DNA of 64,000 bases from Phycisphaeraceae bacterium (GTDB lineage: Bacteria > Planctomycetota > Phycisphaerae > Phycisphaerales > Phycisphaeraceae): assembly GCA_963674705.1 (NCBI GenBank), contig OY771506.1:1792001-1856000 (forward strand). Direction: 5' to 3'. Each line of letters begins with the position of its first letter. Position 1 is the first letter of the stretch. The position numbers and the translations under genes are program-made. This document shows positions 10,935-35,378 of the stretch, in pieces. The notes beneath the pieces are model-generated. The model had not been told where the DNA came from, made no database searches, and saw nothing but the letters and a program-made list of their open reading frames with translations.

Positions 10935-11057
10935 GAGGGGAGAAGGGAGGAAGTTAATCCGATATGTGCATATATATGTACAAATGAAGCATCTGATTTG
11001 CAGCAGCATCTTTGATCATCTGTCTTTATCTGTGTTCATCTATGGCTAAATAACAAT

Positions 11058-11852
11058 TCAAAAAACCCGCTCCACCGCACCCGCCGCGATCAGCGCCGCA
11101 CCCAGCGCACCTGTGATCTGTGGCGTCTTGGGCATCACGATCTGCTTTTCAATCGCGTCGCTTAGCATCTTGTCCATCCTGTTGACGCGCGCTACGCCGC
11201 CGGTGAAAACGACGGGCTCTTTCAAGCGGTGTCCGCCCATGCCGGCGATGCGTCTTGAGATCGCGATCTGCACGCCTGCCGCGATATCACTTGGCTCATG
11301 ACCCGACGATAACAGGCCGATGATTTCCGTCTCCGCGAACACCGCACACATGCTCGATATCGTCGAGGGTTCTTTGCTTTGCGATGCGAGTTTGCCCAGC
11401 TCTTCAAGGTCTACATCCAAACGCTTGGCGACCATTTCAAGAAAGCATCCCGTCCCCGCGGCGCAGCGGTCGTTCATCGTAAAGTCTTCAACGCGCCCGC
11501 TTTCATCCAGGTGAATGACTTTCGAGTCCTGCCCGCCGATCTCGATGATCGATCTTGCATCGGGCAAAAGCATGCGTACGCCGCGCGCGTGGCAGGTGAT
11601 CTCGGTTACAGCTTTATCCGCAAAATCCAGCAGGTGGCGTGCGTATCCGGTCGCGACAACCGCTTCAATATCATCCAGAGACCTGTCGGCATCTTTGACC
11701 ACACGCTCGTACAACGCGCGCGACCGTTGTGCCTGGTTCGTCTGCGAATCATCAACGCCGCTTGCCAGAATCTCCGGCCCCTGGCCGTTCACCTCCAGCA
11801 ACACCACCTTGATGCTGCGCGAACCCGCATCGATACCCGCAAATAACATCAC
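11058..11852 (-). CDS. ATP-dependent activator/reductase of the 2-hydroxyacyl-CoA dehydratase family (HgdC/DCCP-R-like ASKHA ATPase)
   Basis: GIDAGSRSIK, ATGYAR, EITCHARG, IGGQDSK, MNDRCAAGTG, SSMCAVFAE. Confidence 0.93.
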   Translation of the reverse strand: MMLFAGIDAGSRSIKVVLLEVNGQGPEILASGVDDSQTNQAQRSRALYERVVKDADRSLDDIEAVVATGYARHLLDFADKAVTEITCHARGVRMLLPDARSIIEIGGQDSKVIHLDESGRVEDFTMNDRCAAGTGCFLEMVAKRLDVDLEELGKLASQSKEPSTISSMCAVFAETEIIGLLSSGHEPSDIAAGVQIAISRRIAGMGGHRLKEPVVFTGGVARVNRMDKMLSDAIEKQIVMPKTPQITGALGAALIAAGAVERVF

Positions 11853-13246: not shown

Positions 13247-14328
13247 CGCAACATCTCCAGGAATGCCGCGATGCGTCCCTCTGCGCGTTCGCATGTGGTG
13301 GCATCGACATCAAGGTCGATATCAATCACGGGGATCGGCGACAGTTGCTTGATGCGGTGCACCTCCGCGTGCCAGAGATCGCACCACAGACTTCTGCGCA
13401 GGATGATGCCTTTTACGTTGGTTTGTTTGATCGCATTAAGCAGCCAGTCGAAGAAGCGATCGTTCGGCCGTTGACGGATGTGCGGGATCTGCTGATAGGC
13501 GCTTGCCATCGCCTCGAACGGATCGTTATCGATCAGCGATTGGTCGATCGGTTCGGGCAGGCCGCGCTGGCCGTAGTCCGTTGCATCAAGCGCGACGTGG
13601 CCGCCGTGCTGCTTGATTGTGTCGAACAGCCACCACTGATAGCGAGGCAGCTCGGAACCAAGCAGGGCGATGGGGGTAGCAGATGAGTCCCGTGACTCCG
13701 TGGCGCGGGGTGCCACACTTTGACCCGAAGGGCAAAGTGTGTCTTCATGAGCACACTTTGCTGCTGCGCAGTCAAAGTGTGGCACCCGAGGCGCGCGATG
13801 CGCGTGTTCGGGTTTACCGTTGGTGTCACCATGCATTGCAGCTAAAGCCGTAGCGCGTTCCCGGCCGGTCATCGTTTGAAGTTGCATGCGGACGTCTTCT
13901 CGCTTGACTTCGTAAGCGATCAAGATGCTTTTCAAACGACCGGGCGTCGGTGATGTGCCGCCGATGGATTCGAGAAAGTTCCCGAGTCGATGCAGTTCAT
14001 CGCGATAACAACGCTGCGCTGATTCGCTCTGCCAGGTGGCCGGGATGTGCAGGAGCATTGTTGGTGTGTGATGCCTGCCGGGTGTATTCAATGCTTCACT
14101 GGAGCGTCGCAGTTGATCGCATATCGAAGCGACGATCACCGCTGCGACATTCTCGTGCATGGTTGCCTGTGTGATATACACCTGCGACCATGTGCAGCAC
14201 CCATCAACCGATATGGGTGCGCGGTTCTCATTGAATGGTTTGTGGTTGCACGGGCGGAACGGTTGAAAACCATGCGCCTCGATCCACTCGGGAGGGATGT
14301 ACGCCGAGTTGTAGCAGATTCGCTTCAT
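13243..14328 (-). CDS. 2-hydroxyacyl-CoA dehydratase family protein containing an in-frame palindromic repeat
   Basis: YIPPEWIEAHG, SICDQLRR, WCDLW, GRIAAFLEML. Confidence 0.85.
   Translation of the reverse strand: MKRICYNSAYIPPEWIEAHGFQPFRPCNHKPFNENRAPISVDGCCTWSQVYITQATMHENVAAVIVASICDQLRRSSEALNTPGRHHTPTMLLHIPATWQSESAQRCYRDELHRLGNFLESIGGTSPTPGRLKSILIAYEVKREDVRMQLQTMTGRERATALAAMHGDTNGKPEHAHRAPRVPHFDCAAAKCAHEDTLCPSGQSVAPRATESRDSSATPIALLGSELPRYQWWLFDTIKQHGGHVALDATDYGQRGLPEPIDQSLIDNDPFEAMASAYQQIPHIRQRPNDRFFDWLLNAIKQTNVKGIILRRSLWCDLWHAEVHRIKQLSPIPVIDIDLDVDATTCERAEGRIAAFLEMLR
13708..13787. repeat. 80-bp double-hairpin palindromic element (intragenic copy)
   Basis: gggtgccacactttg...caaagtgtggcaccc; same length and closely similar to the reverse complement of 22635-22714. 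Confidence 0.9.
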
Positions 14329-14349: not shown

Positions 14350-15591
14350 CTATGTTGGCTGTGCTGTCGGTCTTGTATTCACCATTTCGAACAATGCTTC
14401 AAGCCGTACCGCGATGCGCTGGCTGTCCGCCGGGGCGTAGTCTGTGACGATCTTCATGTAGGGCAAGCCGAAACGTTCTTCGCTCTGCTGCTTGAGTAGC
14501 GCCGCTTCGACTTCATAGGTCAGGCAGCCCTGCCAGATCAGTTCGACGATGCAGTCGGGTTTGTAGTCGTCAATCAACTTCTCGATCATGTCGAATCGCA
14601 ACGTGTTCGGCGTCATGACAGAACAGGGCAGGTGGAAGTACTTCTCAGCGAGCGCTTCCATCGGATCGGCGTCTTCACGCACATCATCAAGGATGGGTTT
14701 AAGCCCGGTGCAGTTTTCCATCGCAACGATGCGCCCACCGTTATCTTCGATCAGGTCGACGACGCGCTCCGCGCCGTGCGCGATGGGCACACCCGTGACG
14801 AGTACGCGCACTTCCCGGTTCTTGCTAGAAGTTTCGCCGCAGCATTCGGCGCTACCGAGCTTATCAAGGATGGTTTGATACTCGGCAAGGTCTTCGCATA
14901 TCCCGCTGATACTGCTCTTGAGATTAAGTAACTGTCGGCCGGTTAATGGCGGATTATCACGTTTCATCAATGCAGCAAGTTCGCGACGCAGGCGGCGCTC
15001 CTTGTTCATCAGCTCGATCGCGTCGCGGATCTTTTCATCCGTGATCTTGGTGTTGAACTGCTGTTCGAGTTTGGTTTTCAGTTTGTTCAGTTCGATGCGC
15101 CAAAGCGCAAGCGAATCGGGGTCGTCCGGCTTCTGTGGCAATTCAAGGATGTAGACCGGGCGAGATTCGGCCATCAGTTCGTACATCTTCTTCTTGCCGT
15201 CGCAGGTTGTTTCGGCAACGATGAGGTCCGCCATCTCGAGGAACGGATTGTTCTTCTGCATGTGATAGCCGAACGTGCTCTTGATAAGCGGGCACAACCC
15301 GGCGGGCAGAACGGACTCGGCGGCGAGCGCGGTTGTGTGTGATCCGCCACACAAACAGACGGGCACGGCTCCGGCGGCGAGGATCAATTCGCGTGGCGTG
15401 AACTCGCAGAGGATGCCGACGATCGGTTTACCATCGGCCTTGGCTCGCTCGGTGTAGGCCAAGCAGTTTTGGATCATATGGTCAAATCGGCAGGCGTTGG
15501 CGGCCGGGTTATCCACCACTGTTTGGGCGCACGCGTCTGTCGCGTTTGAGGTGCATGCGCACGGATTTGAACTCGGGCAGCAGTCGCTCAT
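14350..15591 (-). CDS. Double-cubane cluster protein (DCCP)-like anaerobic reductase with a Cys-rich N-terminal tail
   Basis: ILCEFTPRE, LCPLIKS, ETTCDGKKKMYE, MENCTG, LPCS, QGCLTY cysteine pattern; N-terminus MSDCCPSSNPCAC. Confidence 0.8.
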   Translation of the reverse strand: MSDCCPSSNPCACTSNATDACAQTVVDNPAANACRFDHMIQNCLAYTERAKADGKPIVGILCEFTPRELILAAGAVPVCLCGGSHTTALAAESVLPAGLCPLIKSTFGYHMQKNNPFLEMADLIVAETTCDGKKKMYELMAESRPVYILELPQKPDDPDSLALWRIELNKLKTKLEQQFNTKITDEKIRDAIELMNKERRLRRELAALMKRDNPPLTGRQLLNLKSSISGICEDLAEYQTILDKLGSAECCGETSSKNREVRVLVTGVPIAHGAERVVDLIEDNGGRIVAMENCTGLKPILDDVREDADPMEALAEKYFHLPCSVMTPNTLRFDMIEKLIDDYKPDCIVELIWQGCLTYEVEAALLKQQSEERFGLPYMKIVTDYAPADSQRIAVRLEALFEMVNTRPTAQPT

Positions 15592-15593: not shown

Positions 15594-16403
15594 TCAGGCC
15601 TCCCGTTTGTGCGCGATGAAGCGCGCCTGGATGATCCGCTTCTCGTGCGCCAAGGTGCGCACAAACCCAAGCTCGCCGGCGATCTGCTGTAGCAGCGATT
15701 GATCGAAGCCGATGATCTTCAGCGCATCGTACGTCAGTTGTTTACTGACCATATCTATATAAAGATCGACATGCGGCGGGAACTGGCCGGTGTCGTCGGC
15801 TTCGAGGACGTCGCAGTTGTTGGCTTCAAGCAGATGCCGATAGTCATCGCATGTGGCGAAGGAGGGGAACTTCATGAAGGCGAGGAAACGCTGGGCCTGC
15901 TCATCAGACAAGCCGGCGGGGCCCTCGCACCAGTCGGTGAAGGCGATGGTGCCCCCGGGCTTGATAAGGCGAGTGGCTTCTTTTATAAGCGATGGTTTAT
16001 CATCAACATAGCACCACGCGTCCTCGCCCCAGACAAAGTCGAATTGCCCGTCGGGCAGGCCGGTATCGATCGCCTTGGCGAGTATGAACGTGGCCCGATC
16101 GGCGTAGCCCTCGTCGGCGCAGCGTTGCTTGCCGAGGTCGATCATGGCCGAGGTCATGTCGACGCCATGCATCCTGTCGACATCGCGGAATCGAAGCAGG
16201 AACCGCATGCCCGCGCCGCTGCAGCAGCAGAGGTCGACGCCGGTGGTTTGGGGCTTGATTTGGGCCTTTTCAGCGAGATGCATGGAGGAAGTCAGCCCGC
16301 CGATGTGGATCTGCTCGCCCATAAGCAGTTCCCAGAGCTTGCCTTCGGCCCCGCTGTAGACAGTTTGGATGTCGGATGATTGGATCGAGTCAAGTGAACG
16401 CAT
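15594..16403 (-). CDS. Class I SAM-dependent methyltransferase
   Basis: IHIGG, VDLCCCSGAG (motif I), GVDMT, FDFVW, LIKPGG. Confidence 0.9.
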   Translation of the reverse strand: MRSLDSIQSSDIQTVYSGAEGKLWELLMGEQIHIGGLTSSMHLAEKAQIKPQTTGVDLCCCSGAGMRFLLRFRDVDRMHGVDMTSAMIDLGKQRCADEGYADRATFILAKAIDTGLPDGQFDFVWGEDAWCYVDDKPSLIKEATRLIKPGGTIAFTDWCEGPAGLSDEQAQRFLAFMKFPSFATCDDYRHLLEANNCDVLEADDTGQFPPHVDLYIDMVSKQLTYDALKIIGFDQSLLQQIAGELGFVRTLAHEKRIIQARFIAHKREA

Positions 16404-16563: not shown

Positions 16564-17967
16564 ATGCAACGTTTGATATGGTCATGCCTTACGGTGACGG
16601 CGGCGATTGTTGTATCCGCTGTGCCATCACCTGGTGGAGGCTCGGTAAGCGCAGCGGACGAAGCGCAGGGCGCGACGTGGCTGAGCTACTACCACAGCCA
16701 GGATGCCCGCAAGCGCCTAGGTTACGCGATCGGCGCGCGTGGGATGGAGATGACCGAGCAAAAGCCGGACGGTTTGAAACTGCCGGCGGACATCGGCGAG
16801 GACGTTCGGTACGGCAAGTGGGACACGCCGATGGATGAAGCGGGCTTCCGGTATGTGGCGCTTGCGCGCAGCGCGTACGGGCAGCTTTGCGATCAACTTG
16901 TCATCGATTCCGATGGTGACGGGCAACTCGATGATGAAACGATCTACGGCACGTACAACCTGCGTGTGTACGGCAGCGCGCGAGGTCGTGTGTACTTCGA
17001 TCCGGTTGCGATCGAACTTCAAACCGAAGACGGCCCGACGCTGTATCACTTGAACGTGAATGTGTATTGCGGCGGTCCCGGTTCGTACAACGTGACATAC
17101 AATGCGGGCGGCTGGTACCAGGGCACGGTGATGCTCAACGGCGAGCCGTTCGATTGCCAGCTATTGGACAACAACGCCAACGGCACGTTCAACGATACGT
17201 GCGAAGGTGATGAAGGATATGGCGACACCGATCGCGTTCGTTTCGGCGCTGCGAATACCGAAGCGATGATGACCGGGCATTACGTGAAGAACGCGGACAA
17301 ATTTTACGCGTTCAGTGCGGCGAAAGATGGCGCGTATGTTACGGTGAAAGATGCGGACGGTTTAGCGGTCGGCAAGATCATTGTGCCGGAGGACTTTGCG
17401 TTCGTGAAAGTGTTCGGACCGGAGGGTTCGTTCAACATCAAGGCCGACAGCGATCAGGAAGTGCCTTGCGGCGACTATCATCTTGTCGCCTGGCAGCGCG
17501 AGGTGAAAGATGTGGCCGGCAAAGACTGGCGCTTCAACGGCGGCGGTTTCCCGGAACATGAAGCGATTGAAGTTGGGACGGATGAGCCGGTCACGCTGGC
17601 GCTGAGCGATCCGTGGAACGCAAAGATTACGGATTATGAACGGCCCGGCCGACACACGTTCAACCAACAGATCACCGGACGCTACGGCGAACAGATCAGT
17701 GCGTCTTATTCCAACGGCGGCCGACCCCCGGCGCCGAGGATGCACATCGTCAGCGAGGATCAGCAGTACGAGCGGACGTTCAAGTTCGAGTATGGGTGAG
17801 GCGGGACCTGTTCGCTCTCATGGCGAGAGCCTTACAACCAGGTCGGCCCCTACACCGCAACCCTTCTGCTGGACTATCCGGTCCAGATCGAATGCGAAGA
17901 TCTGATCATCGGCAAAGCTGCTGAGGATGCTTCCGAAGCAGACAATGCTGTCACGTTGAATGAATAA
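16564..17967 (+). CDS. Exported protein, candidate selenoprotein A (Sec at TGA 17797-17799; 467 aa with readthrough)
   Basis: Signal peptide; FKFEYG-TGA-GGTCSLSWREPY... open to TAA 17965-17967; post-TGA sequence conserved with the paralog at 24751-26073. Confidence 0.82.
17814..17830 (+). promoter_or_regulatory. Candidate SECIS hairpin A
   Basis: gctctc-atggc-gagagc, at +15 to +31 after the TGA. Confidence 0.7.
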
Positions 17968-18047
17968 CAGCGTGGCGGCTGTGCTGTGGTGTGTGCGGTG
18001 TGTTTGAACTTTGTCTGAATCTATCTATTCAAACGAAAGGGGGCGTT

Positions 18048-20450
18048 ATGCGGATGCCTCATCTGATACTGTTCGGATTGGTTTTGTTGTTGAGCGCGGG
18101 GATCGCGCGTGCGGCTGAGTCGGAAGCTGTTACGTTCAAGGGGCGGGTAGTCGACGTCGATGGTAAAGCGATCGGGGGCGCGGATGTTGTCGTGCTTGGT
18201 GCTGATATTGATTTGTTTGTTGGGCCGCAGACCAAGCTTATTGCGCAGACGAAGGCTGATGATGAAGGTGCGTTTAATGTGGCTTCTGAGTCGGTCGGTA
18301 ACTGCGAGCGGATTTTAGTCGCGGCACGACACGACGGGCTTGCGCTTGGTTCGTGGAACGGCGCGTTAAGTGAATTGCCCGAAGCGCTGACGTTGAAACT
18401 TGGCAGCGCGCAGACGATCGCTGGCACGGTCGTGGATGAATCGGAGCAGCCTGTCGCCGGGGCGACGATCAAGGCGATGCTGCGTTGGAACGATGGTGAT
18501 CACGTCAATTCGTTGATCGCACATGAAGCGATCCCCGAGCTGATTGTGAAGACGGATGATGCGGGGCGGTTTGAGTTTCAAGCGGTGCCTGAGGGGGCGG
18601 GCGCGATCATGGCTGTACAGGCCAAAGGTTATGCGACGCAGTTGAAGCCCGAGTCTACTTTGCAAGGCATACCCGCGGGGACGGCAGATACAAAGATCGT
18701 CATGCTAAAAGGCTCGACGATCAACGGCCGGGTAACAGCCAACGTTGAGGACGCGACGCTAAAAGGCCTTACAGTGGTTGGACAGTTCAACAGGTATCCT
18801 TACCTGACAGACGAACGTGCGGTGACGGATGCGGACGGCAAGTTCACGTTGACGGACCTGCCTGCCGGTGAAGTGAAGCTGATCGTTGTGCCCGGGAAGG
18901 TTGATCTGTCACAGGAACTAAGCGAAGCCGACCTGCCGTTTGCGTGTGTCGATGAGGTGAAGGTGGCCGGGCCTGGCAGCGAGCAGGATGTGACGCTGGC
19001 GCTTCAGCGCATGGCGATACTCGAAACGACCGTGATGAATCGTATGTCACAGGAGCCGGTTGCGGATGCGACGTTCCACTATGAGCATCGGCAGGACAAG
19101 CTGAAAAGCACGGTGCAGACGGATGAAAAAGGGAACGGTCGGGCGTTGGTGTTGCCCGGGCCTTACCTGGTTTATGCGGAGCATCCGGACTTTACGCGCA
19201 ACGGCGTTCGTCGGATCGTGACACTCGGTGAAGGTCAGACGATGCAGGTGCCGGTCGGCCTGGTGCAGGCGCAGATGTTGACCGGCACGGTGAAGGATGC
19301 GCAGGGCAACCCGATCAAGGACGCGAAGGTGGAGGCTATGCCTTCAAGTCAATATCCATCGGTCAAGACTGATGCGGATGGCAGGTTCAAGATGCAGTGG
19401 GAGCCCGCGAACTGGGGGCAGGACATCACATCACTACTGATCGTGCGTGATATGAAGAATGATCGGGCGATCGCGGTCCCGATCGACGATACGTTCAAAT
19501 CGTTCGACCTGACGCTACAAAAGGGTGCGTCGTTTACCGGGCGCGTTCTGACGGAAGAGGGCGAACCTTTAGAAAACGCGACTGTTTCAATTACCCTCTT
19601 CGGCGGTAATTGGGGCAGCAGTCTTTCCGGAGAGAACACGGTCCGTTCGGATGCGGACGGGCGATTCAAGGTTGTCGGCCTGCCGGCACAGGCTGGTTAT
19701 CACCTCTCGGCTACCGCGGATGGGTACGGCCAATTCACCTGGCGGTTCGACAACGTCGAGTCGACCGAGAATGTCCTGGATGATGCGAAGCTGCTCAAGG
19801 CCGATCAGACACTGACGGGCACGGTCGTGGATTCCAATGGCAAACCCGTCGCCAAGGCGCGCGTGCAGGTGTATGGAGACGACCAAGTCAACAAGAACGT
19901 TGAAGCCGATGACGAAGGTAAGTTCAAGATCGAAGGTTTGTGCAAGGGGTATGCGAACCTGTTCGTGCAGTCTCAGGGCGCGCCGCACATGTACGGCCAG
20001 TACTATGCGAAGGTGGATCAGAAAGAAGTGAAGATCGTGATTTCCGAGCAGGGGATGAACCAGGAGCCTGCGGCGGAAGTGATACCCGAATCGATTGAGG
20101 GACAGCAGGCGCCTGACTTGAGCACGTTGGGTCTTGAAACGGCGCCGGAAGGCAAGCCGGTGTTGGTGCTTTTTATAGATGCGAAGCAGAGATCCTCACG
20201 GCATGCGTTGTCTGATCTGCTCAAGAAGATGGGTGGCAGCAATAGCGCGCATGTCGTCGTTGTGCAGGTCGGTGAGGCGGATGATGCGTTGATCAAGGCG
20301 CAGAACATCAAGCTGCCGGTGGCGCGCGTGACGGAAGATGTGGAAGATGTATGTGTGAAGTGGGGCGTTCCGGCGGTGCCGTGGTACGTGCTGGCCGATC
20401 CGAAGGGGAACGTCGTGCACAGCGGCGCAACACTTTCAGCGGCGCAGTAA
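18048..20450 (+). CDS. Exported protein with tandem carboxypeptidase-regulatory-like beta-sandwich repeats and a C-terminal thioredoxin-like domain lacking CxxC
   Basis: Repeated GxVVDxxGxPVxxA...TDxxGRF units; C-terminal GKPVLVLFIDAKQRSSR...WGVPAVPWYVLADPKGNV. Confidence 0.82.
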   Translation: MRMPHLILFGLVLLLSAGIARAAESEAVTFKGRVVDVDGKAIGGADVVVLGADIDLFVGPQTKLIAQTKADDEGAFNVASESVGNCERILVAARHDGLALGSWNGALSELPEALTLKLGSAQTIAGTVVDESEQPVAGATIKAMLRWNDGDHVNSLIAHEAIPELIVKTDDAGRFEFQAVPEGAGAIMAVQAKGYATQLKPESTLQGIPAGTADTKIVMLKGSTINGRVTANVEDATLKGLTVVGQFNRYPYLTDERAVTDADGKFTLTDLPAGEVKLIVVPGKVDLSQELSEADLPFACVDEVKVAGPGSEQDVTLALQRMAILETTVMNRMSQEPVADATFHYEHRQDKLKSTVQTDEKGNGRALVLPGPYLVYAEHPDFTRNGVRRIVTLGEGQTMQVPVGLVQAQMLTGTVKDAQGNPIKDAKVEAMPSSQYPSVKTDADGRFKMQWEPANWGQDITSLLIVRDMKNDRAIAVPIDDTFKSFDLTLQKGASFTGRVLTEEGEPLENATVSITLFGGNWGSSLSGENTVRSDADGRFKVVGLPAQAGYHLSATADGYGQFTWRFDNVESTENVLDDAKLLKADQTLTGTVVDSNGKPVAKARVQVYGDDQVNKNVEADDEGKFKIEGLCKGYANLFVQSQGAPHMYGQYYAKVDQKEVKIVISEQGMNQEPAAEVIPESIEGQQAPDLSTLGLETAPEGKPVLVLFIDAKQRSSRHALSDLLKKMGGSNSAHVVVVQVGEADDALIKAQNIKLPVARVTEDVEDVCVKWGVPAVPWYVLADPKGNVVHSGATLSAAQ

Positions 20451-20788
20451 CCACGAAAAGGTAATAAGTGTTTTTAAGCAGCCCCATGCGGGAGCGTGGG
20501 GTTGTTTTTATTTAGCCACGAAAAGGCACAGAAGACACAAAAAGAGCTGGGTATTGGAATCTTTGGAAGCAGGGATATTCAGGCGGGTTTTCTGCGATAT
20601 AAAGATTATGAGATGGGGCTCGTTTTGTGTCTTCTGTGCTTTTTTGTGGCTGAAGTTCTGCTCTGCTTTTTGCCAGAAAAATGCACAAGAATCACAAAAG
20701 GGCGGGTGTTTGGAATCCGCGGAGCTTGGATTCATCAAGAGTACAAGTCTGTGTGTTCAACTTGGTATTGATTGAACTGTATGAAGAT

Positions 20789-20994
20789 CGCCCCATAGGG
20801 GCGTCGGGTTGTAGCCACGGGTCTAGCGAAGCGTAACCCGTGGAAGTTAGTGTTATACATTTTACGTCGCCCCGGAAGGGGTGAAGGCGGTGTTCCTGCC
20901 ATCCCTGTCGGGGCGGAGCGGATTTATCACTATCTCATATCCACGGGTTACGCTGCGCTGCACCCGTGGCTACATGCTGTAACCCCTTCGGGGT
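20789..20994. repeat. REPIN/MITE-like multi-hairpin palindromic element
   Basis: tgtagccacgggt...acccgtgg and ccacgggt...acccgtggctaca inverted arms with internal cgcccc..gggg hairpins; bracketed by ttagccacgaaaaggcaca-type repeats (~20511-20652, ~21063-21090). Confidence 0.7.
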
Positions 20995-21188
20995 ATGCCT
21001 TGCTCTGTATCTGGGATAGTCTCAGGTTTTCTGAGATACAAGTCTTAGATTGCCGGCTACATTTTGTGTTTTCTACACTATTTTGTGGCTGAACTCCTGT
21101 TTCAAAGACTGACTTTTATGGCATACTCAGTACTGTATCCGTAGATACCGATAGGGTATGATGGTCAGACTTTCTGTGGAGGTTCGTC

Positions 21189-22604
21189 GTGACATCAGCG
21201 ATACATCGTGATCTGCTTCGACAGTTGCCTTCGGTTAATGATCTGCTGGCTGATGCGCGGACGGTCGCGTGGCTGGCGGAGCATCCAAGGGAGCTGGTGA
21301 CGGACTGCCTGCGTACGGCGGTGGATACGCTGCGCGAGCAGATCCTTTCCGACCAGGCTGGGCGGTGCGGGGTTCAGCATGTCAATATGGAATCGGTGCT
21401 CGACCGTGCGGAGGCCGAAGTCGCGAAGCGCACTTCGCCGAACATGCACGCGGCGATCAACGCGACGGGGATCATCCTGCATACGGGGTTAGGCAGAGCG
21501 GTGTTGCCAGCCCGCGCGGTCGAAGCGATCGGGCAGGAGTTGAAAGGTTACGTCACGCTTGCGGTCGACCGCGAGACGGGCGAGCGGATCAACCGCGACC
21601 AGATGGTCGAATCACTGCTATGCGAACTGACCGGCGCGGAGGCGGCGACGGTCGTGAACAACAACGCGGCGGGGACGATGCTCGTGCTTGCGGCGCTTGG
21701 CGCGGGGCGTGAAGTGATCGTTTCGCGTGGTGAGCTTATTGAGATCGGCGGCGCGTTCCGCCTGCCTGACGTGATGGCGCAGAGCCAGTCGAAGATGGTG
21801 GAGGTCGGCACGACAAACCGCACGCACCTGCGCGATTACGAAAACGCGATGACGGAAGACACGTCGCTTTTGTTTAGAGCGCATCCGAGTAATTACCGGA
21901 TCGTCGGATTTACGAGCGCGGTACCGATCGAATCGCTGGCGGAGCTGGCGCATGGGCGCGGGCTTGCGGTGGTGGATGATCTTGGCGCGGGGGCGTTGGT
22001 GGGGTTGGAGAAGTTTGGATTGCCGCACGAGCCGACGATGCGTGAATCGATCGAAGCCGGTGCGGATATCGTGCTGGCGAGTACGGATAAACTGATCGGT
22101 GCGGGGCAGGGGGGCGTGATCGTCGGCAAGAAAGAACTGATAAAGAAGATTAGAAAACATCCTCTAGCGCGTGCGATGCGTGTAGATAAGACCTGTTTGA
22201 TGGCGCTTGAGCGTACGCTGCCGCTATTCAGGGATATCAAGCTATTGAAGCGCGAGCATCCGACGTACATGATGCTGTCGTCGCCGATGGAAACATTGAC
22301 CGAGCGTGCGGAAGCGCTGGCGGCCGCGATCCGAAAGGTGTTGGCGACTGCTGAGGTCGAGGTTTGCGAGGATGTGGGATATCTGGGGTCGGGTTCGCTG
22401 CCGAGCGAGGCGCTACCTTCGATGGCGGTGCGTTTGCGCGTGGCTTCGATGAAGGTTGCGCATCTAGCCAAGGCGCTTCGGCTTGATGATGCGTGTGTGT
22501 TTACGCGTGTGACGGATCAGACAGTGGTGATGGATACACGCACGATCACGGATGAACAGGTGGAATTGATCGCCGCCGCGGTGAAGCGGTGCGTGGGATC
22601 GTGA
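21189..22604 (+). CDS. selA: L-seryl-tRNA(Sec) selenium transferase
   Basis: INATGIILHTGLGRA, VVNNNA, VSRGELIEIGG, EVGTTNRTH, HPSNY, DLGAG, STDKLIG. Confidence 0.97.
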   Translation: MTSAIHRDLLRQLPSVNDLLADARTVAWLAEHPRELVTDCLRTAVDTLREQILSDQAGRCGVQHVNMESVLDRAEAEVAKRTSPNMHAAINATGIILHTGLGRAVLPARAVEAIGQELKGYVTLAVDRETGERINRDQMVESLLCELTGAEAATVVNNNAAGTMLVLAALGAGREVIVSRGELIEIGGAFRLPDVMAQSQSKMVEVGTTNRTHLRDYENAMTEDTSLLFRAHPSNYRIVGFTSAVPIESLAELAHGRGLAVVDDLGAGALVGLEKFGLPHEPTMRESIEAGADIVLASTDKLIGAGQGGVIVGKKELIKKIRKHPLARAMRVDKTCLMALERTLPLFRDIKLLKREHPTYMMLSSPMETLTERAEALAAAIRKVLATAEVEVCEDVGYLGSGSLPSEALPSMAVRLRVASMKVAHLAKALRLDDACVFTRVTDQTVVMDTRTITDEQVELIAAAVKRCVGS

Positions 22605-22634
22605 AGTGTTATACAAGTTTAATCCTCCGGATAT

Positions 22635-22714
22635 GGGTGCCACACTTTGACCGCGCAGCGGCAAAGTGTGTGGTACGAAGCGCACTTTGCCCTTCGAGAT
22701 AAAGTGTGGCACCC
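22635..22714. repeat. 80-bp double-hairpin palindromic element (intergenic copy between selA and selB)
   Basis: gggtgccacactttgaccgcgcagcggcaaagtgtg...aaagtgtggcaccc. Confidence 0.9.
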
Positions 22715-22763
22715 GAAGGTGTACAAAACAGTTTGATGTATTAGTAACTTCCGGGGTGCGATT

Positions 22764-24707
22764 ATGCCTGATAAACATAAGAACATCATGCTTGGTACGG
22801 CCGGTCACGTCGATCACGGCAAGACGTCGCTGGTGAAGCTGCTGACCGGTTGTGATACGGATCGATTAGCTGAAGAAAAACGGCGCGGCTTGACGATCGA
22901 GCTCGGCTTTGCGCCATGCAAGATGACGGACGATCGGATCGTCGGCATCGTGGATGTGCCGGGGCATGTTTCTTTTATCCGGCACATGGTCGCGGGGGCG
23001 CATGGGGTTGATGTGATCATTCTTGTGGTTGCTGCGGACGACGGTGTGATGCCTCAGACGCGCGAGCATCTGGATGTGATGACGTTGATGGGGGCGCGTC
23101 GTGGGTTGGTTGCGCTGACGAAGATCGATCTTGTTGATGAAGAAATGCGCGAGCTTGCGATAGAGGATGTACGCGGCGCGTTGGCGGAGACGTTTTTAGC
23201 TGATGCGCCGATCTGCCCGGTATCGAACGTGACGGGCGAAGGGTTTGAAGGATTTTTCAAGGCACTGGATGAGCAGGTCGCGGCGTGCGAGCCGCGCGTT
23301 TCGTTTGGGCCTTACCGGCAGTGGGTGGAGCGGTCGTTTATCGCGCATGGTTTTGGCGTGGTCGCGTCGGGGATACCGACGACGGGGGAATTGAAGGTTG
23401 GGGAGTATGTGCGTGTTTTGCCGGGCGATCTGAAGCTTCGCGTACGGGGGCTGCAGGTGTATGGCGATGATGCGCAGGTCGCGCGGTTGGGCGAATGCGC
23501 TGCGGTGAACCTGGCGGATGTGGACCTGGAACGTTTGCCGCGCGGCGTGGTGTTGACGACCTCGACGACGCTTGGCACGGTATCGCAGTGCGCGGCACGT
23601 TTGCGGACGCTTGGGCGCTCGAAGCGAGCGCTTCGTGACGGGACAGAGGTGCATCTGCATGTAGGGACGGAGTATGTGCAAGCGAAAGTGATTGCGCTGG
23701 AAGGGGGTCCGATCGAACCGAGCGATGAAGCGCTGGTGCAGTTGCGATTTGAACGGGAGTTACCGGTTTCGCCGGGCGATCGGTTTGTTGTAAGGACGCA
23801 TGTTGAAGAAGCCGGCGGCTTGACGACGATCGGCGGGGGCGTGGTGCTGGACACGACGGATAAACGTATGCGGCGGAAGCGCGTGGAGGTATTGGAGCCT
23901 TTAAAGAAGCGTGAGGCGGCGCTGGGTGATCCGGCGGCATGGTGTTTGGCGCTGCTTGAGGAGGTGGAAGAGTCGATGACGGTGGAAGCGCTAGTGGAGC
24001 GCGCGGTGTTGCTTGAATGCGAGGTTGAGCCGGCGCTTGATGCATTGAAGCAGCGAGAGGATGTGGTGGCGCTGGATGATCGGCGCGTGTTGGCGAAGCG
24101 CGTGATCGAACGCGCGGGCGAGAAGATTGTTGAGCGGTTGCGTGAAGAGCATGCGGCGAATCCTGATAAGTTCGGCTTGACGACAGCGATATTGGTTAAC
24201 GCGCTTGAAATGGATGGGGATGTTGCTGCGAATGCGGTGGCGGGGTTGTGCGATAGCGGCACCATGACGCGGCAGGGGGAGTTGCTTGCGCTGGCGGAGC
24301 ATCGGCCTGCGATCAGCGCGGCGGATCAGAAGTTGCTTGATGCGATAGTTGATCTATATAAGAAGGATCACTTCGCGGCGAAGCGGCCGAGCGAGGCGGC
24401 GGAGGCGCTGGGCGAGCCGATGAAGCGCGTGCAGCCGATGGTGAAGATGCTGATCGAGCGTGGGGATCTGGTGAAGCTGACAGACCAGATCGTGATGCAT
24501 CGTGACGCGGTCACGGCGGCGGTGGGCGTGGTGCGGGATTTGTTTGAGAAGTCAGAGCGCTTTTCTACGGCCGAATTCCGCGATGCGCTGGGCGCAAGCC
24601 GTAAGTATGTAATCCCCTTGCTTGACTATTTTGACCACGAACGTCTGACGATCCGCCACGGCAGCGAGCGAAAGCCCGGGGCAAAGTTGCGGGAAGAGGT
24701 CGGCTGA
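22764..24707 (+). CDS. selB: Selenocysteine-specific translation elongation factor
   Basis: GTAGHVDHGKT, EEKRRGLTIELGFA, DVPGH, TKID; C-terminal winged helix FRDALGASRKYVIPLLDYFD. Confidence 0.97.
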   Translation: MPDKHKNIMLGTAGHVDHGKTSLVKLLTGCDTDRLAEEKRRGLTIELGFAPCKMTDDRIVGIVDVPGHVSFIRHMVAGAHGVDVIILVVAADDGVMPQTREHLDVMTLMGARRGLVALTKIDLVDEEMRELAIEDVRGALAETFLADAPICPVSNVTGEGFEGFFKALDEQVAACEPRVSFGPYRQWVERSFIAHGFGVVASGIPTTGELKVGEYVRVLPGDLKLRVRGLQVYGDDAQVARLGECAAVNLADVDLERLPRGVVLTTSTTLGTVSQCAARLRTLGRSKRALRDGTEVHLHVGTEYVQAKVIALEGGPIEPSDEALVQLRFERELPVSPGDRFVVRTHVEEAGGLTTIGGGVVLDTTDKRMRRKRVEVLEPLKKREAALGDPAAWCLALLEEVEESMTVEALVERAVLLECEVEPALDALKQREDVVALDDRRVLAKRVIERAGEKIVERLREEHAANPDKFGLTTAILVNALEMDGDVAANAVAGLCDSGTMTRQGELLALAEHRPAISAADQKLLDAIVDLYKKDHFAAKRPSEAAEALGEPMKRVQPMVKMLIERGDLVKLTDQIVMHRDAVTAAVGVVRDLFEKSERFSTAEFRDALGASRKYVIPLLDYFDHERLTIRHGSERKPGAKLREEVG

Positions 24708-24750
24708 AAAGACATGAGATTTTATTGTATTATGTGGGTAAGCAACTACA

Positions 24751-26073
24751 ATGGTGGACAGTTGCCGCGGCGGTTTTGCCGTGATTCCGAAAGGGTTTTT
24801 TGTGATTGTATTACGCCGATTAGCCGCTGCGATGTTGCTGGCCGGCGGTGTAATTGTGTGTGCGGATGTGCAGGCGGAAATCAGTTTCCGTGCTGCTGAC
24901 CCGAGGGCGACGTTATGCCACGCGCCGCGTGTGGTGGATACGTTCACAGCATCATCGGCGGGGAGGCTGAGCAGTTCGGCGGTGGTGGGGACATTGAATA
25001 CACATTACGGGCCTATCCATGTCGCGATCGATCCGCGCGGCACGAGTGAGCCTTACAACGTGACGTTTGATTTCACCGGCACGGGCAGGTTTGAAGACCC
25101 GACCGAGGTGCGCGTCATCGCACGCAAGCATGGCGACTACTTCTGGGGTGAGTTGACGCCGACGGTCGTGGAACTTTCACGTGGCGGGCATAAGATCAGC
25201 GTCGGCATCATGGGGATGGTGTATCGCTCAAGCGACAGCCAATCGGTCGATGTGATGTTCGGCGCCATGATGGAAACGTCGTGTGCGTTCGGCTCGCAGA
25301 CGCTTGATGTCGACATTATGGACGGCGATCAGAACTTCTACTTTGGTGATAAGTCAGCAAAGCGCGGGTTCAAGGTCGAGGTCGGCGACACACTGGTTGT
25401 GCATAAGGACAATCAACGGTACATGGTTTTGGTCGGCCAGCCGGTGCAGATCGATGGTGCGTGGTACGACATCGTCGTGCATGAAGATTATTCACTTGAA
25501 GCGAAGCCTGTGAATATCACGGTGGGCAAGTTACAGATCGATAAGGGCGACTGGTCCGCGATCTTTGTCGGCAGGCGGTATGTCTGCGGCGCAAAGGGTG
25601 GGACGGAGGCGGTCACGCTGCCGGCTGATTCTTACACCATCGTGCGCTACGATGAACGCAGCGGCACCGCGATGGTGTCGTGTCAGAGTGATAACGGCCC
25701 GAGCGCGTCGGTGCAGGCTGGACAGACGGCGCAGGTGAGTATCGGCACGCCGATCGCGGGCATCCCGGTCATGTTCCAGCAGGGCGATACCGTCAGCATC
25801 CGCGCGAAGATGATCGATTCAAGCGGGATGAACGTGACGGAACTTCGGCTTGAAAGTGGATTGCGTCCGGAGCCGCCTGTCGTGGCGGTGTTTGATAGTA
25901 GCGGTCACGTGCTGCATCAGGCCGCACTGGAATATGGGTGAGGTGGCATATGTTCGCACTCATGGCGGGTGCCATCCAATGCAGGCCGGGGCGGATCGCT
26001 GACAGCGGTCATGAAGTACGAGGCGAAGCCGTTCACGGTCAAGCTCGGACGGACGGACTTCAACGTGCGCTGA
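24751..26073 (+). CDS. Exported protein, candidate selenoprotein B (Sec at TGA 25939-25941), paralog of A
   Basis: Signal-like N-terminus (start possibly GTG ~24802); AALEYG-TGA-GGICSHSWRVPS... open to TGA 26071-26073; located between selB and selD. Confidence 0.82.
25956..25972 (+). promoter_or_regulatory. Candidate SECIS hairpin B
   Basis: gcactc-atggc-gggtgc at +15 to +31 after the TGA; same loop as hairpin A, with stem-preserving substitutions. Confidence 0.7.
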
Positions 26074-26167: not shown

Positions 26168-27748
26168 ATGAAAATTGACTACACCAAGCGACGCCAGGTG
26201 ATGGCCCGATCGCGCAAGCTCGGGCATTGTATTTGTGATCCACGCAGGCCTTGCCCGTGCGATGTGTTTACCGAGCAGGGCATCTGCCCCTGTGCCGGGG
26301 AAAGGCCGGACCCGATCCCCGCCGATCAGGTGAAGCTGACGGACCTGGTGCGCAACGCAGGTTGTGCATCGAAGATTGCGCCGGGCGATCTGGATACGGT
26401 GTTGTCGCGCTTGCCGGAGATCACGGACCCGCGCGTGTTGTGCGGCGTCGCGGCGGGGGACGATGCGGGTGTGTATCAACTCGATGGCGAGTGCCTGGTG
26501 CAGACGGTTGATGTGATGACGCCTTGCGTAGACGATGCGCGGATGTTCGGGCGGATATGCGCCGCCAATTGCGTGTCGGATATTTATGCGATGGGCGGGA
26601 CACCACGTTCCGCGCTGAGCGTTCTTGCTTTCCCGACAGAAACGCTTTCCGGGCAGATCATGTACGAGATGATGAGCGGCGCGATGGAAGTGCTGGCAGA
26701 AGCAGGTGTCGCGCTGATCGGCGGGCACAGTATCAAGGACGAGCAGATCATGCTCGGCTTTGCGATCACCGGCACGATCGACCCGAAGCGCGTCACACAG
26801 CGCGGCACCGCGCGCGTCGGCGATGTCCTGGTACTGACCAAACCGCTAGGCACGGGCGTATTGAACTTTGCACGCCAGATCGGTAGAGCGCCGCAGGAAG
26901 GTTTAGCACAAGCGGAAACCTCAATGGCGACGCTTAACCGTGCGGCCGCGGAAGCCATGGTGCAATGCGATGCCTCTGCATGCACGGACGTCACCGGTTT
27001 TGGTTTGTTCGGCCACCTCGCGGGCATGGTCCGTCACTCCAAAGTCACCGCCGAGATCGACCTGGATACGCTTCCTTCTTTCGATGGCGCACTCGATCTG
27101 TTGGCAAGCGGCATGATCCCCGGCGCGGTCGAGCGTAATAAAGAATACGTCGGCGATGATATTATTTTTGCCGAAGATGTGGATGAACCACGCCTGCACC
27201 TCGGATTCGATGCGCAGACGTCGGGTGGTTTGCTGATCGCGGTCGAGCCGAAGCACGTGGATGAATTGCTAAAAATGCTATCCGCTGATGGCGTGACGGG
27301 ATACGCTGTCGGGCGAATCACCGAAAAGTCGGACGGCCGGATTGTGGCTCAATCCATGGGGGCGACGGTCACAACGCCGGCGGCAAACGAAGCCGAAGAA
27401 GTTGTCGCTTCGCACGCTGCCGTGCAAACACACGAAGCTGTGCCCGTCGGCATCGGTGAATCCCGCCGCGCGTTCGGCGCATTGATGCGCTCGACATCGC
27501 AGGCCGGCACGATCGATGAGAAGACCAAGACACTGATCAACATCTCCCTCGTGACATTGCAGCGCTGCGGCCCCTGTTTGAAGTCACACCTCGGCAAGGC
27601 ACAAAAACTGGGCATCGATGAGAACCGCATCGATGAAGCCATCTGGTGCGCGATAGCGATGGGCGGCGCGTGCGTGAAGGTGTTTTATGATGAGTTTAAG
27701 CAGAATGAATCCGGCGGGGGTGATGGTGGAGTGTATTCGTGTTGTTGA
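26168..27748 (+). CDS. selD: Selenide, water dikinase (Cys-type) fused to an N-terminal Cys-rich domain and a C-terminal AhpD/CMD-like domain
   Basis: KLTDLVRNAGCASKI, DDAGVY, VQTVD, GGHSI, LTKPLGTG, TDVTGFGL, DAQTSGGLL; extra CICDPRRPCPC..CPC and QRCGPCLKSH. Confidence 0.95.
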   Translation: MKIDYTKRRQVMARSRKLGHCICDPRRPCPCDVFTEQGICPCAGERPDPIPADQVKLTDLVRNAGCASKIAPGDLDTVLSRLPEITDPRVLCGVAAGDDAGVYQLDGECLVQTVDVMTPCVDDARMFGRICAANCVSDIYAMGGTPRSALSVLAFPTETLSGQIMYEMMSGAMEVLAEAGVALIGGHSIKDEQIMLGFAITGTIDPKRVTQRGTARVGDVLVLTKPLGTGVLNFARQIGRAPQEGLAQAETSMATLNRAAAEAMVQCDASACTDVTGFGLFGHLAGMVRHSKVTAEIDLDTLPSFDGALDLLASGMIPGAVERNKEYVGDDIIFAEDVDEPRLHLGFDAQTSGGLLIAVEPKHVDELLKMLSADGVTGYAVGRITEKSDGRIVAQSMGATVTTPAANEAEEVVASHAAVQTHEAVPVGIGESRRAFGALMRSTSQAGTIDEKTKTLINISLVTLQRCGPCLKSHLGKAQKLGIDENRIDEAIWCAIAMGGACVKVFYDEFKQNESGGGDGGVYSCC

Positions 27749-27911
27749 ATGGGTGAAAAGAATTAGCCACGAAAAGACACAGAATACACAAAAAGGGCTG
27801 GGATTTGTGTCTTTGATAGCCGCATTGCGATGCTATGCGGCGGTAACAGAAGTTGTTGAGCATTTGGGATAACGTCGCGGCGATCTGCGAACGTACGCTA
27901 CTCGGGAGGGT

Positions 27912-28116
27912 ATAGCCGCGACCAGTGGTCGCGCAGGTATTGTGTTTGTTGAATGTGAAGAGCGCGACCGATGGTCGCGGCTATACAGGCGGTTGGAAAT
28001 GGCGAATGCACGAATGTCGAATGACGGATTACAAATGACGAGTGTGTGAGTAGGTCATTTGGCATTTGTCATTTGAGCATTCTTTCGTTATTCGACATTC
28101 TTTAATCGTGCATTTC
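27912..28116. repeat. REP-like palindrome pair plus a degenerate 7-mer (CGAATGA-like) inverted array
   Basis: tagccgcgaccagtggtcgcgc / gcgcgaccgatggtcgcggcta; then cgaatgcacgaatgtcgaatgac... facing ...tcatttggcatttgtcatt...ttcgacattc; related REP copies at ~4878 and ~6674. Confidence 0.65.
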
Positions 28117-28127
28117 AAGCACTCAGG

Positions 28128-28160
28128 CCCTCACCCCGGCCCTCTCCCGAGGGGAGAGGG
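28128..28160. repeat. CCCTCACCCCGGCCCTCTCCC..GGGAGAGGG hairpin repeat family
   Basis: Other copies at ~9841, ~9924 (interrupted by the IS), ~29873, ~31247, ~37760 and ~37846. Confidence 0.8.
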
Positions 28161-28253
28161 GGTAGATGCATATAACATTGTGTGAACAGCCCCACGCGGG
28201 AGCGTGGTGTTAATTACCCGACCAGGATGGTCGGGCTATATCTAATGCAGTTG

Positions 28254-29105
28254 TTATTTGCCGGGCACGGGTTGGGGTGGGTTTGCTTCTGGGGTCTTCG
28301 GGGTTTTGCCGGCGACAGTCAGTGTGATGGCGGGGCAGTTGGTGCATTCCATGCAGCGGATGCAGGATGCGTTGTTGATGGATTGATCGAGTTTGACATC
28401 GTACTTGCATCGGCTGCGGCAGAGGTTGCATTCGGTGCACTTGGGGGCGTTGTAGTGCAGGTAGAGGAGGCTGAATCGGTTGAAGATCGCGAAGATGCCG
28501 CCGAGCGGGCAGAAGATTCGGCACCACGGGCGGTAGGTGAAGAAAGCTAAGAAGAGGACGACGCCGGTGACGATGAGTTTGATCGTGTTGGGGATGAACA
28601 GTTGTCCGCGATAGATTGATTGGCCAAGCGCGGCTTCGAGCGCGCCGGCGGGGCAGACGTTACAGAAGAAAAGCGGGTGTTCGTCGCCGAAGAAGAAGGG
28701 GATGAGCAGGACGAGTCCGATGAGCGTGACGAATCGGCCGTAGCCTAGCCAGCTTGGGATGGAGTATTTGGGTGTGGGGATTTTCCCGAGCAGGTCCTGG
28801 AAGAAGCCGAAGGGGCATGCCCAACCGCAGACGGCTGTGCCGAAGATCCCGCCGACGGTGATCAGCACGCCGAGGATCATCAGCGGCCACATGTGCATCG
28901 CGGCGAACTGCGACATGAGCCCAATCGGGCAAGCGACTGTTGCGAGCGGGCATGCGTAGCAGTGGAAGACGCAGCCGGGCACGGAATGCCAACGCAGTAG
29001 AAGTGGGTCGAGCCAGACAGCGAGAAAAGCGGTCTGCACCCAGGGGCGTAGTTTGCCGAGGTTCAGTCGGCGACGGGGGATGTTTGGTTTGGATGATTCG
29101 GCCAT
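28254..29105 (-). CDS. Membrane 4Fe-4S binding protein (NapH/RdxA/YccM-like)
   Basis: CVFHCYACP..ACPIG, CGWACPFG, FCNVCPAG, WCRIFCPLG, CTECNLCRSRC, CIRCMEC; hydrophobic segments. Confidence 0.92.
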   Translation of the reverse strand: MAESSKPNIPRRRLNLGKLRPWVQTAFLAVWLDPLLLRWHSVPGCVFHCYACPLATVACPIGLMSQFAAMHMWPLMILGVLITVGGIFGTAVCGWACPFGFFQDLLGKIPTPKYSIPSWLGYGRFVTLIGLVLLIPFFFGDEHPLFFCNVCPAGALEAALGQSIYRGQLFIPNTIKLIVTGVVLFLAFFTYRPWCRIFCPLGGIFAIFNRFSLLYLHYNAPKCTECNLCRSRCKYDVKLDQSINNASCIRCMECTNCPAITLTVAGKTPKTPEANPPQPVPGK

Positions 29106-29127
29106 GGCACGCATGACCCGGCGGGGG

Positions 29128-29571: not shown

Positions 29572-29664
29572 CGGAGGTGCATGGGAATCGAACCCACCCG
29601 GGACCGTTAAAGCCCCACACTGGTTTTGAAGACCAGGAGCGTCACCAGACCGCCGATCACCTCC
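29572..29664 (-). tRNA. selC: tRNA-Sec (anticodon UCA)
   Basis: Minus strand GGAGGTGATCGGCGGTCTGGTGACGCTCCTGGTC-TTCAA-AACCAGTGTGGGGCTTTAACGGTCCCGGGTGGGTTCGATTCCCATGCACCTCCG: UCA anticodon, long variable arm, T-loop; no encoded CCA. Confidence 0.96.
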
Positions 29665-30207
29665 CGCGGCTGGTGCATTTTATCAGGTATCGGCATGTGG
29701 GGATATGTTGGGGTTTTTATTTTTTGGTATTAGCCACAGATCAACACAGATTAAGCGGAAGCCTGGCGAACTTGCGTGGCATCATTTTTAGCCACGAAAA
29801 GGCACAAAATACACAGAAGGTTTTGAGAAGGGCGTTTGATATTGATGGGTGTTGAACCCATAAGGAACCCGGCCCTCACCCGGGCCATATTCCGGGGGCT
29901 CCCGCGGGGAGAGGGAGCTCATCTATATAGATACGGGATTAGATCGGTGCGATACATCGGGTTGATCTGGCGATCAGTTTGTGTGATGAAGTGCATTGAT
30001 TGAGTGTAAGCCTGTGAACTAAAGAAGTTATTTATATCTTGGGGGGGTTTGTTAGAATAGGGTGAGTCATATTGCTACGGGCGGTCGGTAAATCAGGAGA
30101 AAGCAGTGCGGGGCCGTTGGCCGGGCGGGCGGTGTTTCGTGGCATGTCTGTAAAAAGTAAACGGGAAGGGGAGCAAGGCAATCTCGCGGGCGGTAGAACA
30201 ATCCGAA

Positions 30208-34666: not shown

Positions 34667-34758
34667 GGCAGTACACATACACAGGTCCGCCCAACAGCGC
34701 ACCTGTGACTTTTAAAGCACCTGGCTGAATTGATTACGGACACATGAAAGGAAACATC

Positions 34759-35376: not shown

Positions 35377-35378
35377 GC

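Follow-up and report, generated by a model that had tools for sequence, protein, structure and literature searches.

Two in-frame UGA codons among the selenocysteine genes of a Phycisphaeraceae genome point to a family of probably exported selenoproteins with a predicted immunoglobulin-like domain

The stretch of DNA analyzed here (the window) comprises 64,000 nucleotides of contig OY771506.1 from the Phycisphaeraceae bacterium assembly GCA_963674705.1 (positions 1,792,001 to 1,856,000; Planctomycetota, Phycisphaerae). It holds two genes, called gene 1 and gene 2, each of which runs through an in-frame UGA followed by a hairpin resembling a selenocysteine insertion sequence (SECIS), and both are interleaved with genes for the selenocysteine (Sec, U) machinery. 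In window coordinates, these features are:

16564..17967, + strand: gene 1, with a 467-aa read-through product and a hydrophobic N-terminus; from model and sequence, its body is all-beta with two D-x-D/N-x-D/N-G loops, and a C-terminal immunoglobulin (Ig)/fibronectin type III (FnIII)-like domain carries U412-G-G-T-C416
17797..17799, + strand: in-frame UGA of gene 1, predicted Sec codon
17814..17830, + strand: SECIS-like hairpin of gene 1, GCTCTC-ATGGC-GAGAGC, with a 6-bp stem, loop AUGGC and 20 nt from UGA to loop
21189..22604, + strand: selA (TIGR00474, 518.6 bits, cut-off 267.9)
22764..24707, + strand: selB (TIGR00475, 305.6 bits, cut-off 242.25), with the C-terminal winged-helix domain PF09107
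24751..26073, + strand: gene 2, a paralog of gene 1 with a 440-aa read-through product carrying U397-G-G-I-C401
25939..25941, + strand: in-frame UGA of gene 2, predicted Sec codon
25956..25972, + strand: SECIS-like hairpin of gene 2, GCACTC-ATGGC-GGGTGC, with the same position and loop as in gene 1
26168..27748, + strand: selD, Cys form, with a fused Cys-rich N-terminal extension and a C-terminal CMD/AhpD domain; it passes the NCBIfam cut-off
29572..29664, - strand: tRNA-Sec (selC), anticodon UCA (Rfam RF01852, 71.5 bits)

A preliminary description, made from the DNA letters alone, had reported that the open reading frames (ORFs) at 16564-17799 and 24751-25941 both end in E-Y-G-TGA and stay open beyond it. 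The sequence bears this out, the frame continuing for 55 codons in gene 1, to a TAA at 17965-17967, and for 43 codons in gene 2, to a TGA at 26071-26073. The hairpins it described were likewise found at +15 to +31 from each UGA with the loop AUGGC, and between them one stem pair is exchanged in a compensatory way, from U-A to A-U, and another goes from U-A to U-G. Its gene order also holds, with gene 2 between selB and selD and gene 1 two genes upstream of selA; selA, selB, selC and selD all lie within 12 kb of both UGA codons. As it had anticipated, annotation stops at EYG: the database record of gene 2 is a 396-aa product that ends there. The start of this gene is probably a GTG near 24802, judging by the N-termini of its homologs. 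Two further points stood in part. Paralogy between the genes is evident around the UGA (BLASTP E 1e-7) but not pairwise in the N-terminal regions, which are linked only through shared homologs. The N-termini of the proposed signal-peptide ORFs are hydrophobic, signal peptides having been judged by hydrophobicity only.

The read-through motif of genes 1 and 2 occurs at two sites only in the 5.5-Mb genome, and the UGA-plus-hairpin pattern was observed twice in the window versus 0.13 occurrences expected by chance. Open frames alone are weak evidence, as at least 37 open codons follow 176 of the 835 long TGA-ending ORFs of this genome. Because such frames are common and the hairpins are not unusually stable, the two window genes by themselves are no more than suggestive, and the weight of the observation therefore comes from the homologs. 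Assembly error was considered and set aside, since contigs of run X1 span both UGA sites with no differing letter; the codon call rests on homologs. A 371-base contig of run X6 across the second UGA site carries 12 differences.

Whenever a stop codon stood at this site in relatives it was TGA, the exclusivity that the preliminary description had proposed to examine, and TAA or TAG appeared nowhere. Among 301 same-class genomes, in which the homologs bearing names are Phycisphaerae, the domain was matched 120 times in 53 genomes, with one TGA in 117 matches and no stop in the other 3. A 62-sequence profile gave 176 matches in 59 of the class genomes, and the 150 matches listed include 143 with TGA and 7 with no stop. 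Within a phylum sample of 401 genomes, 81 of 97 matches have TGA and 16 have no stop. Finally, a DNA pattern scan that left the codon free yielded, among at least 129 loci listed, 128 with TGA and a single GGA, under a pattern that favours genes keeping S-W-R and so under-samples Cys forms. The lone GGA locus was rejected by the profile as a non-homolog. The 80 titled records among the pattern matches listed are mostly from Planctomycetota (62), followed by Verrucomicrobiota/Kiritimatiellia (9), BRC1/Sumerlaeota (2), Riflebacteria (1) and Hydrogenedentota (1), together with 4 unclassified records and 1 false match. Genomes carry from 1 to about 10 TGA copies, and no viral contig matched the family. 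The family tree is a rough one, built with FastTree from 100 residues with the hairpin-constrained segment unmasked.

The hairpin is conserved as a paired structure, and the covariation check suggested earlier gave a clear answer. Across 65 aligned loci, all 390 cells of the 6-bp stem are paired, 59 of them by two-sided (compensatory) change, with covariation in four of the six stem pairs; none of 500 shuffles and no slid register was comparable, and RNAalifold recovered the identical helix unaided. Among the pattern matches listed, for which pairing was not required, 124 of 128 loci have six of six pairs. The same complete pairing is present in 95 of 112 TGA loci, and the exact stem is absent from all 15 non-TGA loci, which reach three of six pairs at most. 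Spacing from UGA to loop is 20 nt in 106 of the 112 TGA loci. Synonymous sites inside the element are frozen (Ser TCR in 77/77, Arg CGA in 74/77, wobble G in 77/77), CGA representing 12% of the Arg codons of this genome, and the stem drives amino acid covariation such as L-E (CTC/GAG), Y-V (TAC/GTA), H-V, C-A, R-A and Y-I. A covariance model recovered six TGA loci of other phyla or orders that had been held out, and 0 of 10 non-TGA loci, a weak control because the model also encodes protein conservation.

The bacterial SECIS (bSECIS) consensus, as given in the available text of a 2026 catalogue (PMC13188914), calls for a 3-9-nt loop with a G among its first two nucleotides, an upper stem of 4-16 bp, a distance of 16-37 nt between UGA and loop, and a minimum free energy (MFE) of at most -7.5 kcal/mol. 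With its 5-nt loop, 6-bp stem and 20-nt spacing, the hairpin fits the size rules, and 97 of 128 homologs among the pattern matches listed have the loop GUGGC, which also meets the G rule. The AUGGC loop of the window genes may be the reason why SECIS-based tools would miss some members. Some distant TGA members (Y-G-U-G-G/S; L100, L101, L102, L103, L104 and L088) lack a second Cys and have their hairpin in another register, which may represent a second type of SECIS. At another locus (L046, near 9413, minus strand), a deiodinase-like gene with S-Y-T-U-P-P-F and an in-frame UGA adjoins two family members and has its own, different hairpin; the family hairpin is therefore specific to the family and not a genome-wide SECIS.

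Coding beyond the UGA is also conserved, in line with the downstream coding that had been postulated. All 112 TGA loci have at least 37 open codons past the UGA, and beyond the hairpin substitutions favour the third codon position (1710/1337/2911 for positions one to three over 228 pairs), as compared with 1014/883/2216 upstream of the UGA in the same number of pairs. The frame after the UGA had been described as the best conserved part of the proteins. This is so for the 11 codons that overlap the hairpin, where the mean top-residue frequency is 0.78, but not farther on, where it is 0.43 versus 0.39 before the UGA; G-x-F and G-P-F motifs are nevertheless conserved after the hairpin. The 189 complete tails include 132 short ones, 31 with a multi-pass membrane domain, 19 with one or two helices and 7 long soluble ones, and one tail continues into a LamG domain. 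In the membrane subfamily (31 loci, e.g., L044:4250-6232, L047:17757-19775 and L048:5255-6574), the Sec domain is followed by a membrane domain of 5-8 helices that has one conserved Cys in 25 of the 31; in standard annotation, the membrane domain would be missing or appear as a gene of its own. Of the database proteins examined, 42 end at x-[YF]-G. One member (L108:4802-6007) has a C-U dipeptide at the site.

The distribution of the Sec machinery follows that of the TGA forms, so that the proposed co-occurrence with sel genes was recovered as well. These counts come from related genomes, for which statistics overstate independence, and are given as counts with no p-values. Among the class genomes, 112 of 301 have selA, one of them as a contig-end fragment. 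It is present in 50 of 52 genomes with TGA forms versus 62 of 249 others and absent from all 4 genomes with only non-TGA forms, 3 further profile-positive genomes standing outside this classing. In 32 of the 50 selA-positive TGA genomes, selA lies within 10 kb of a family gene. In the phylum sample, selA was found in 36 of 37 TGA genomes and was absent from 3 of 5 with only non-TGA forms; 4 of 5 carriers from other phyla have it. Two crude, non-exhaustive scans returned no other selenoprotein in this genome, and they were insensitive, gene 2 itself lying outside the best 90 rows of one of them; the genome's molybdopterin, AhpC/TSA, deiodinase-like and thioredoxin matches contain no internal stop. 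The ends of SelD (window 26168-26320 and 27460-27748) show three CxC motifs in the conserved N-terminal extension and the CMD/AhpD domain at the C-terminus, and each of the 15 SelD matches seen has the Cys-type motif and the extension. Pfam matched nothing in the extension. Its CPC-x8-CxC spacing presumably resembles that of ferredoxin-thioredoxin reductase, and it could be a built-in selenium-reducing module.

In structure models, the UGA splits a predicted Ig/FnIII-like domain (AF2, predicted local distance difference test 94, predicted template modeling score 0.90), and the part after the UGA would supply the final strands of the predicted sandwich. Sec is thus predicted to sit in a beta-hairpin loop of this C-terminal domain, and the all-beta models agree with the earlier placement of the redox pair outside a thioredoxin fold. 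The U-x-x-x-C pair itself was borne out in most loci but not all, with a Cys at U+4 in 92 of 112 TGA loci and in 31 of 31 membrane forms; its redox pairing is the putative part of the claim. Cys-for-Sec homologs, which the preliminary description had suggested looking for, were found: at the U column of full-length homologs, Cys occurs more often than any other residue (26 of 101 domains), it is also aligned to the UGA in loci L039, L070 and L072, and members of a C-x-x-x-C subfamily carry fused AhpC/TSA-redoxin domains, most of them with CxCxxC. A complex prediction for the Ig domain and the redoxin domain of a natural Cys-form fusion scored 0.11. Foldseek returned no match at E <= 0.001 in a search that did not treat the N-terminal 320 residues separately, no solved relative was found by sequence (best E 0.073), and the ESM Atlas gave unnamed clusters only for a truncated homolog (P0003).

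The genes around this locus recur with the family. Besides those listed above, the neighborhood comprises:

17991..20450, + strand: 819-aa protein with PF13620 carboxypeptidase-regulatory-like repeats, a conserved neighbor of gene-1 orthologs
28254..29114, - strand: membrane 4Fe-4S protein (PF12801, weakly NapH/MauN-like), a conserved neighbor
15594..16403, - strand: S-adenosylmethionine (SAM) methyltransferase (PF08241), divergent from gene 1, a conserved neighbor
14350..15591, - strand: double-cubane-cluster anaerobic reductase (NF040772, 418 bits, cut-off 350)
13243-14328 and 11849-13294, - strand: two further HGD-D family genes (PF06050)
11058..11852, - strand: ATP-dependent activase (TIGR00241)

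Around family members elsewhere, selA, selB, the SelD fusion, the methyltransferase, the double-cubane protein, the two HGD-D genes and the activase are recurrent, as are the membrane 4Fe-4S protein and the repeat protein with its thioredoxin-like domain. At the end of the 819-aa protein (window 20061-20450), D-x-x-Q-R-[PS]-S-R replaces the CxxC of this domain, a motif also present in 5 homologous loci. Some homologous loci add an SsuA/SaoX-like ATP-binding cassette (ABC) transporter and beta-barrel-type proteins.

The conservation of the UGA, the covarying hairpin, the downstream coding, the linkage to sel genes and the Cys homologs all favour the earlier claim that both genes encode selenoproteins and, judged by sequence, the internal UGA of the family is almost certainly read as Sec. 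In the proposed mechanism, SelB would bind the hairpin and deliver Sec-tRNA at the UGA, by a recoding mechanism that is itself of the known SelB/SECIS kind. The products would be precursors of 467 and 440 residues, and export of the family proteins is quite probable. Sec and the U+4 Cys would join across the hairpin loop in a reversible Se-S bond, exchanging with thioredoxin-fold or membrane partners as the dithiol of the N-terminal domain of DsbD (nDsbD) does; by analogy, such a cycle is a tentative proposal that falls slightly short of an even chance. Overall, the best explanation is a SelB-decoded Sec family, probably exported, whose Se-S pair would pass electrons outside the cytoplasm, an account whose chances of being right and wrong we hold to be balanced. 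A link to the co-inherited module of double-cubane protein, activase, methyltransferase and membrane ferredoxin, as electron source or client, is somewhat doubtful. We consider rather unlikely the fuller picture of a mobile selenium island with Sec machinery mainly for these proteins, in which the Ig domain with its U-x3-C pair would act outside the cytoplasm as a plug-in selenium redox module wired through the membrane ferredoxin to the double-cubane reductase, activase and methyltransferase for a low-potential or metalloid pathway.

Several observations weigh against parts of this account. TGA forms occur with no selA found in four genomes (G064, G238, G361 and G678), the first three being fragmented assemblies. 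The isolated hairpins are not unusually stable (z of -1.4 for gene 1 and +0.95 for gene 2 over 54 nt; -8.2 and -7.1 kcal/mol, respectively, for the 17-nt hairpins, longer windows folding lower), so that hairpin 2 alone misses the bSECIS MFE cut-off, and both window loops, with their G in third place, fail its G rule. The exact 6-bp register is missing from 17 of 112 TGA loci, mostly distant ones. The four genomes in which no selA was found and the modest hairpin stability would suit a UGA that is a true stop before a conserved RNA element, or one read as Cys, Trp or Gly. Such readings are nevertheless extremely improbable: no search found TAA or TAG at the site, third-position bias and long conserved continuations lie beyond the hairpin, and truncation would remove the last strands of the modeled sandwich. 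A global UGA=Trp/Gly code is excluded by TGA being the commonest stop here (1830 of 3999 called genes), and the one tRNA of the window with a UCA anticodon is scored as tRNA-Sec and lies alongside selA and selD. Other points concern the function of the pair. The U+4 Cys is missing from 20 of 112 TGA loci, 16 of which lack any Cys between U and the conserved Trp, and the thioredoxin-like domain of the adjacent 819-aa protein has no CxxC. Moreover, the site is occupied by a residue other than Cys or Sec in 75 of 101 full-length homologs, some of which are fused to a BlaR1-type peptidase or a Ser/Thr kinase; therefore, the domain also serves without the pair.

Such members without a second Cys, together with the many paralogs and their variable N-terminal bodies, fit ligand binding, and the Sec domain might instead serve at the surface or in the periplasm to capture a soft metal, metalloid or selenium species and hand it on to linked uptake and reduction genes, as proposed for the selenocysteine-assisted organometallic (SAO) system. 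We regard this main rival as rather unlikely. In its favour, NF040772 is found in 33 of 50 selA-positive class genomes with the TGA family versus 3 of 62 without it, homologous loci hold a methyltransferase together with ABC subunits that resemble SsuA/SaoX but score under the Sao cut-offs and proteins of the outer-membrane beta-barrel type, and the available text of a preprint by Haft and Gwadz (10.1101/2022.07.06.499078) links double-cubane proteins to the SAO selenoprotein locus. On the contrary, no ABC transporter lies beside the window locus, none of the Sao markers (SaoA/B/C/L/P/T/X) was above its cut-off among the 13 window proteins scanned, 17 of the 50 carriers have no double-cubane match, and the redoxin fusions of Cys forms point to thiol exchange. 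Less probable still is a Sec residue that belongs to a structural or sensory module of the cell surface and, instead of carrying electrons catalytically, serves an adhesin- or receptor-like protein as redox switch or covalent cross-linker, since the tight linkage to selA and the reductase module is unexpected for generic adhesins and the U+4 Cys is invariant in membrane forms.

The absence of an existing selenoprotein model, supposed in the preliminary description, was upheld: no NCBIfam model matches either protein or the 62 aligned family domains. Pfam gave only weak matches for 98 members (GEVED in 12, MG2 in 5), and the MG2 macroglobulin domain (PF01835) was rejected for gene 2 at 17 bits versus a gathering threshold of 32.8. 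The table of 119 selenoprotein families in the 2026 catalogue (PMC13188914) has no such entry, a term search of its text found no mention of Planctomycetes, and a description of the family was not found in the available text on bacterial selenoproteins of PMC12013277 (deep-Sep), PMC13745706 (SelCysML) and PMC13326102 (BSepDB), the last without its family table S2. Literature searches likewise turned up none. The families of Haft and Tolstoy (2025) stand in the review table with NCBIfam accessions (PMC13188914), and unpublished candidate lists of Deng et al. (2026) may include members.

It is important to consider how the family relates to known systems. With SelB-dependent recoding by a SECIS within the ORF (prototype E. 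coli fdhF; model in the available text of PMC13188914), it shares the in-frame UGA, a G-containing loop 20 nt downstream, SelA, SelB, SelD and tRNA-Sec, and Cys homologs. It differs in being a new protein family with the loop R-U-G-G-C (G at position 3 in the AUGGC variant), a stem that forces amino acid covariation, and up to about 10 paralogs per genome, interleaved with sel genes. For nDsbD, the available text of PMC3137068 describes an Ig-fold domain whose active dithiol undergoes exchange with a thioredoxin domain. The likeness of nDsbD (PF11412) lies in an extracytoplasmic (here probable) Ig-fold (here predicted) domain with a redox pair (here putative), and in related family forms fused to multi-pass membrane or thioredoxin-fold domains. 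In contrast to nDsbD, with its Cys103-x5-Cys109, the family has U-x3-C, selenium and a large N-terminal beta body, with no sequence similarity found and no single chain seen that joins Ig, membrane and thioredoxin parts. The PF11412 profile matched none of 98 members, nDsbD was not among the best 50 VIA-align rows, though it may lie below them, and one DsbD_N-like domain of this genome, compared with the family profile, reached a probability of 5%; nDsbD may serve as a working analogue at most. The SAO system shares the association with NF040772 double-cubane proteins, adjacent here. Its selenoproteins are a MerB-like lyase, ABC subunits and a thioredoxin, whereas here they would be Ig-domain proteins from other phyla with the sel machinery inside the locus; SaoA/P/X-like matches in homologous loci fall below cut-off. 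Thioredoxin-fold UxxC/CxxU selenoproteins also have Sec near Cys, in contrast to the all-beta model, U-x-x-x-C motif and probable export of this family. 'Hypothetical protein DG' (NF049953, GUxG motif) has the tetrapeptide G-U-x-G in common; its model (cut-off 130 bits) was rejected, matching neither gene even at E <= 1.

If the Sec reading is true, this would be a large selenoprotein family with a predicted Ig/FnIII fold and a probable extracytoplasmic place, neither of which is listed in the 2026 catalogue, and it would occur in phyla that go unmentioned in that text (PMC13188914). It would offer a possible explanation for the retention of Sec machinery in many Phycisphaerae, given that SelD is of the Cys type here and the non-exhaustive scans found no other selenoprotein. 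Hundreds of database proteins would be cut at EYG, some of them minus a whole membrane domain. The family would also provide a SECIS alignment of unusual clarity, with amino acid covariation dictated by RNA pairing and an AUGGC loop variant that would escape the standard rule, as well as a new genomic way into the unexplained connection of double-cubane proteins with selenium. Were the island reading to hold too, the DsbD Ig domain would have its first selenium-based analogue in these proteins, which would constitute the dominant selenoproteome, wholly without annotation, in anaerobic Planctomycetota and neighboring phyla.

Regarding the origin of the locus, its flanks hold a DDE transposase gene at 10027-10920 (PF01609) with inverted repeats at 9936-9967 and 10915-10946, the tRNA-Sec lying at the other end. 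Among 12 genomes of the same family, none has the domain and one has selA. Because of these flanks and this rarity, the locus may be an acquired island; its GC content is not shifted. An 84-base palindromic element lies inside the HGD-D gene 13243-14328 (window 13706-13789), with a related copy between selA and selB (22635-22714) and an Rfam MIR7486 match below threshold. Intergenic direct and inverted repeat families resembling repetitive extragenic palindromes (REP) flank the sel genes (window 9743-9876, 20464-21099, 27763-28211 and 29730-29898). Farther along, seven PEP-CTERM-type exported proteins are encoded in tandem at 32312-37691, downstream of a sigma-54 activator at 30208-31191. The region 48442-59189 looks, from its translations, like a cluster for NAD salvage and ADP-ribose handling, presumably with nicotinate phosphoribosyltransferase-like, PRPP synthetase-like, NAD synthetase, Nudix regulator, ADP-ribosylglycohydrolase-like, nicotinamidase, macro-like and Tpt1-like proteins.

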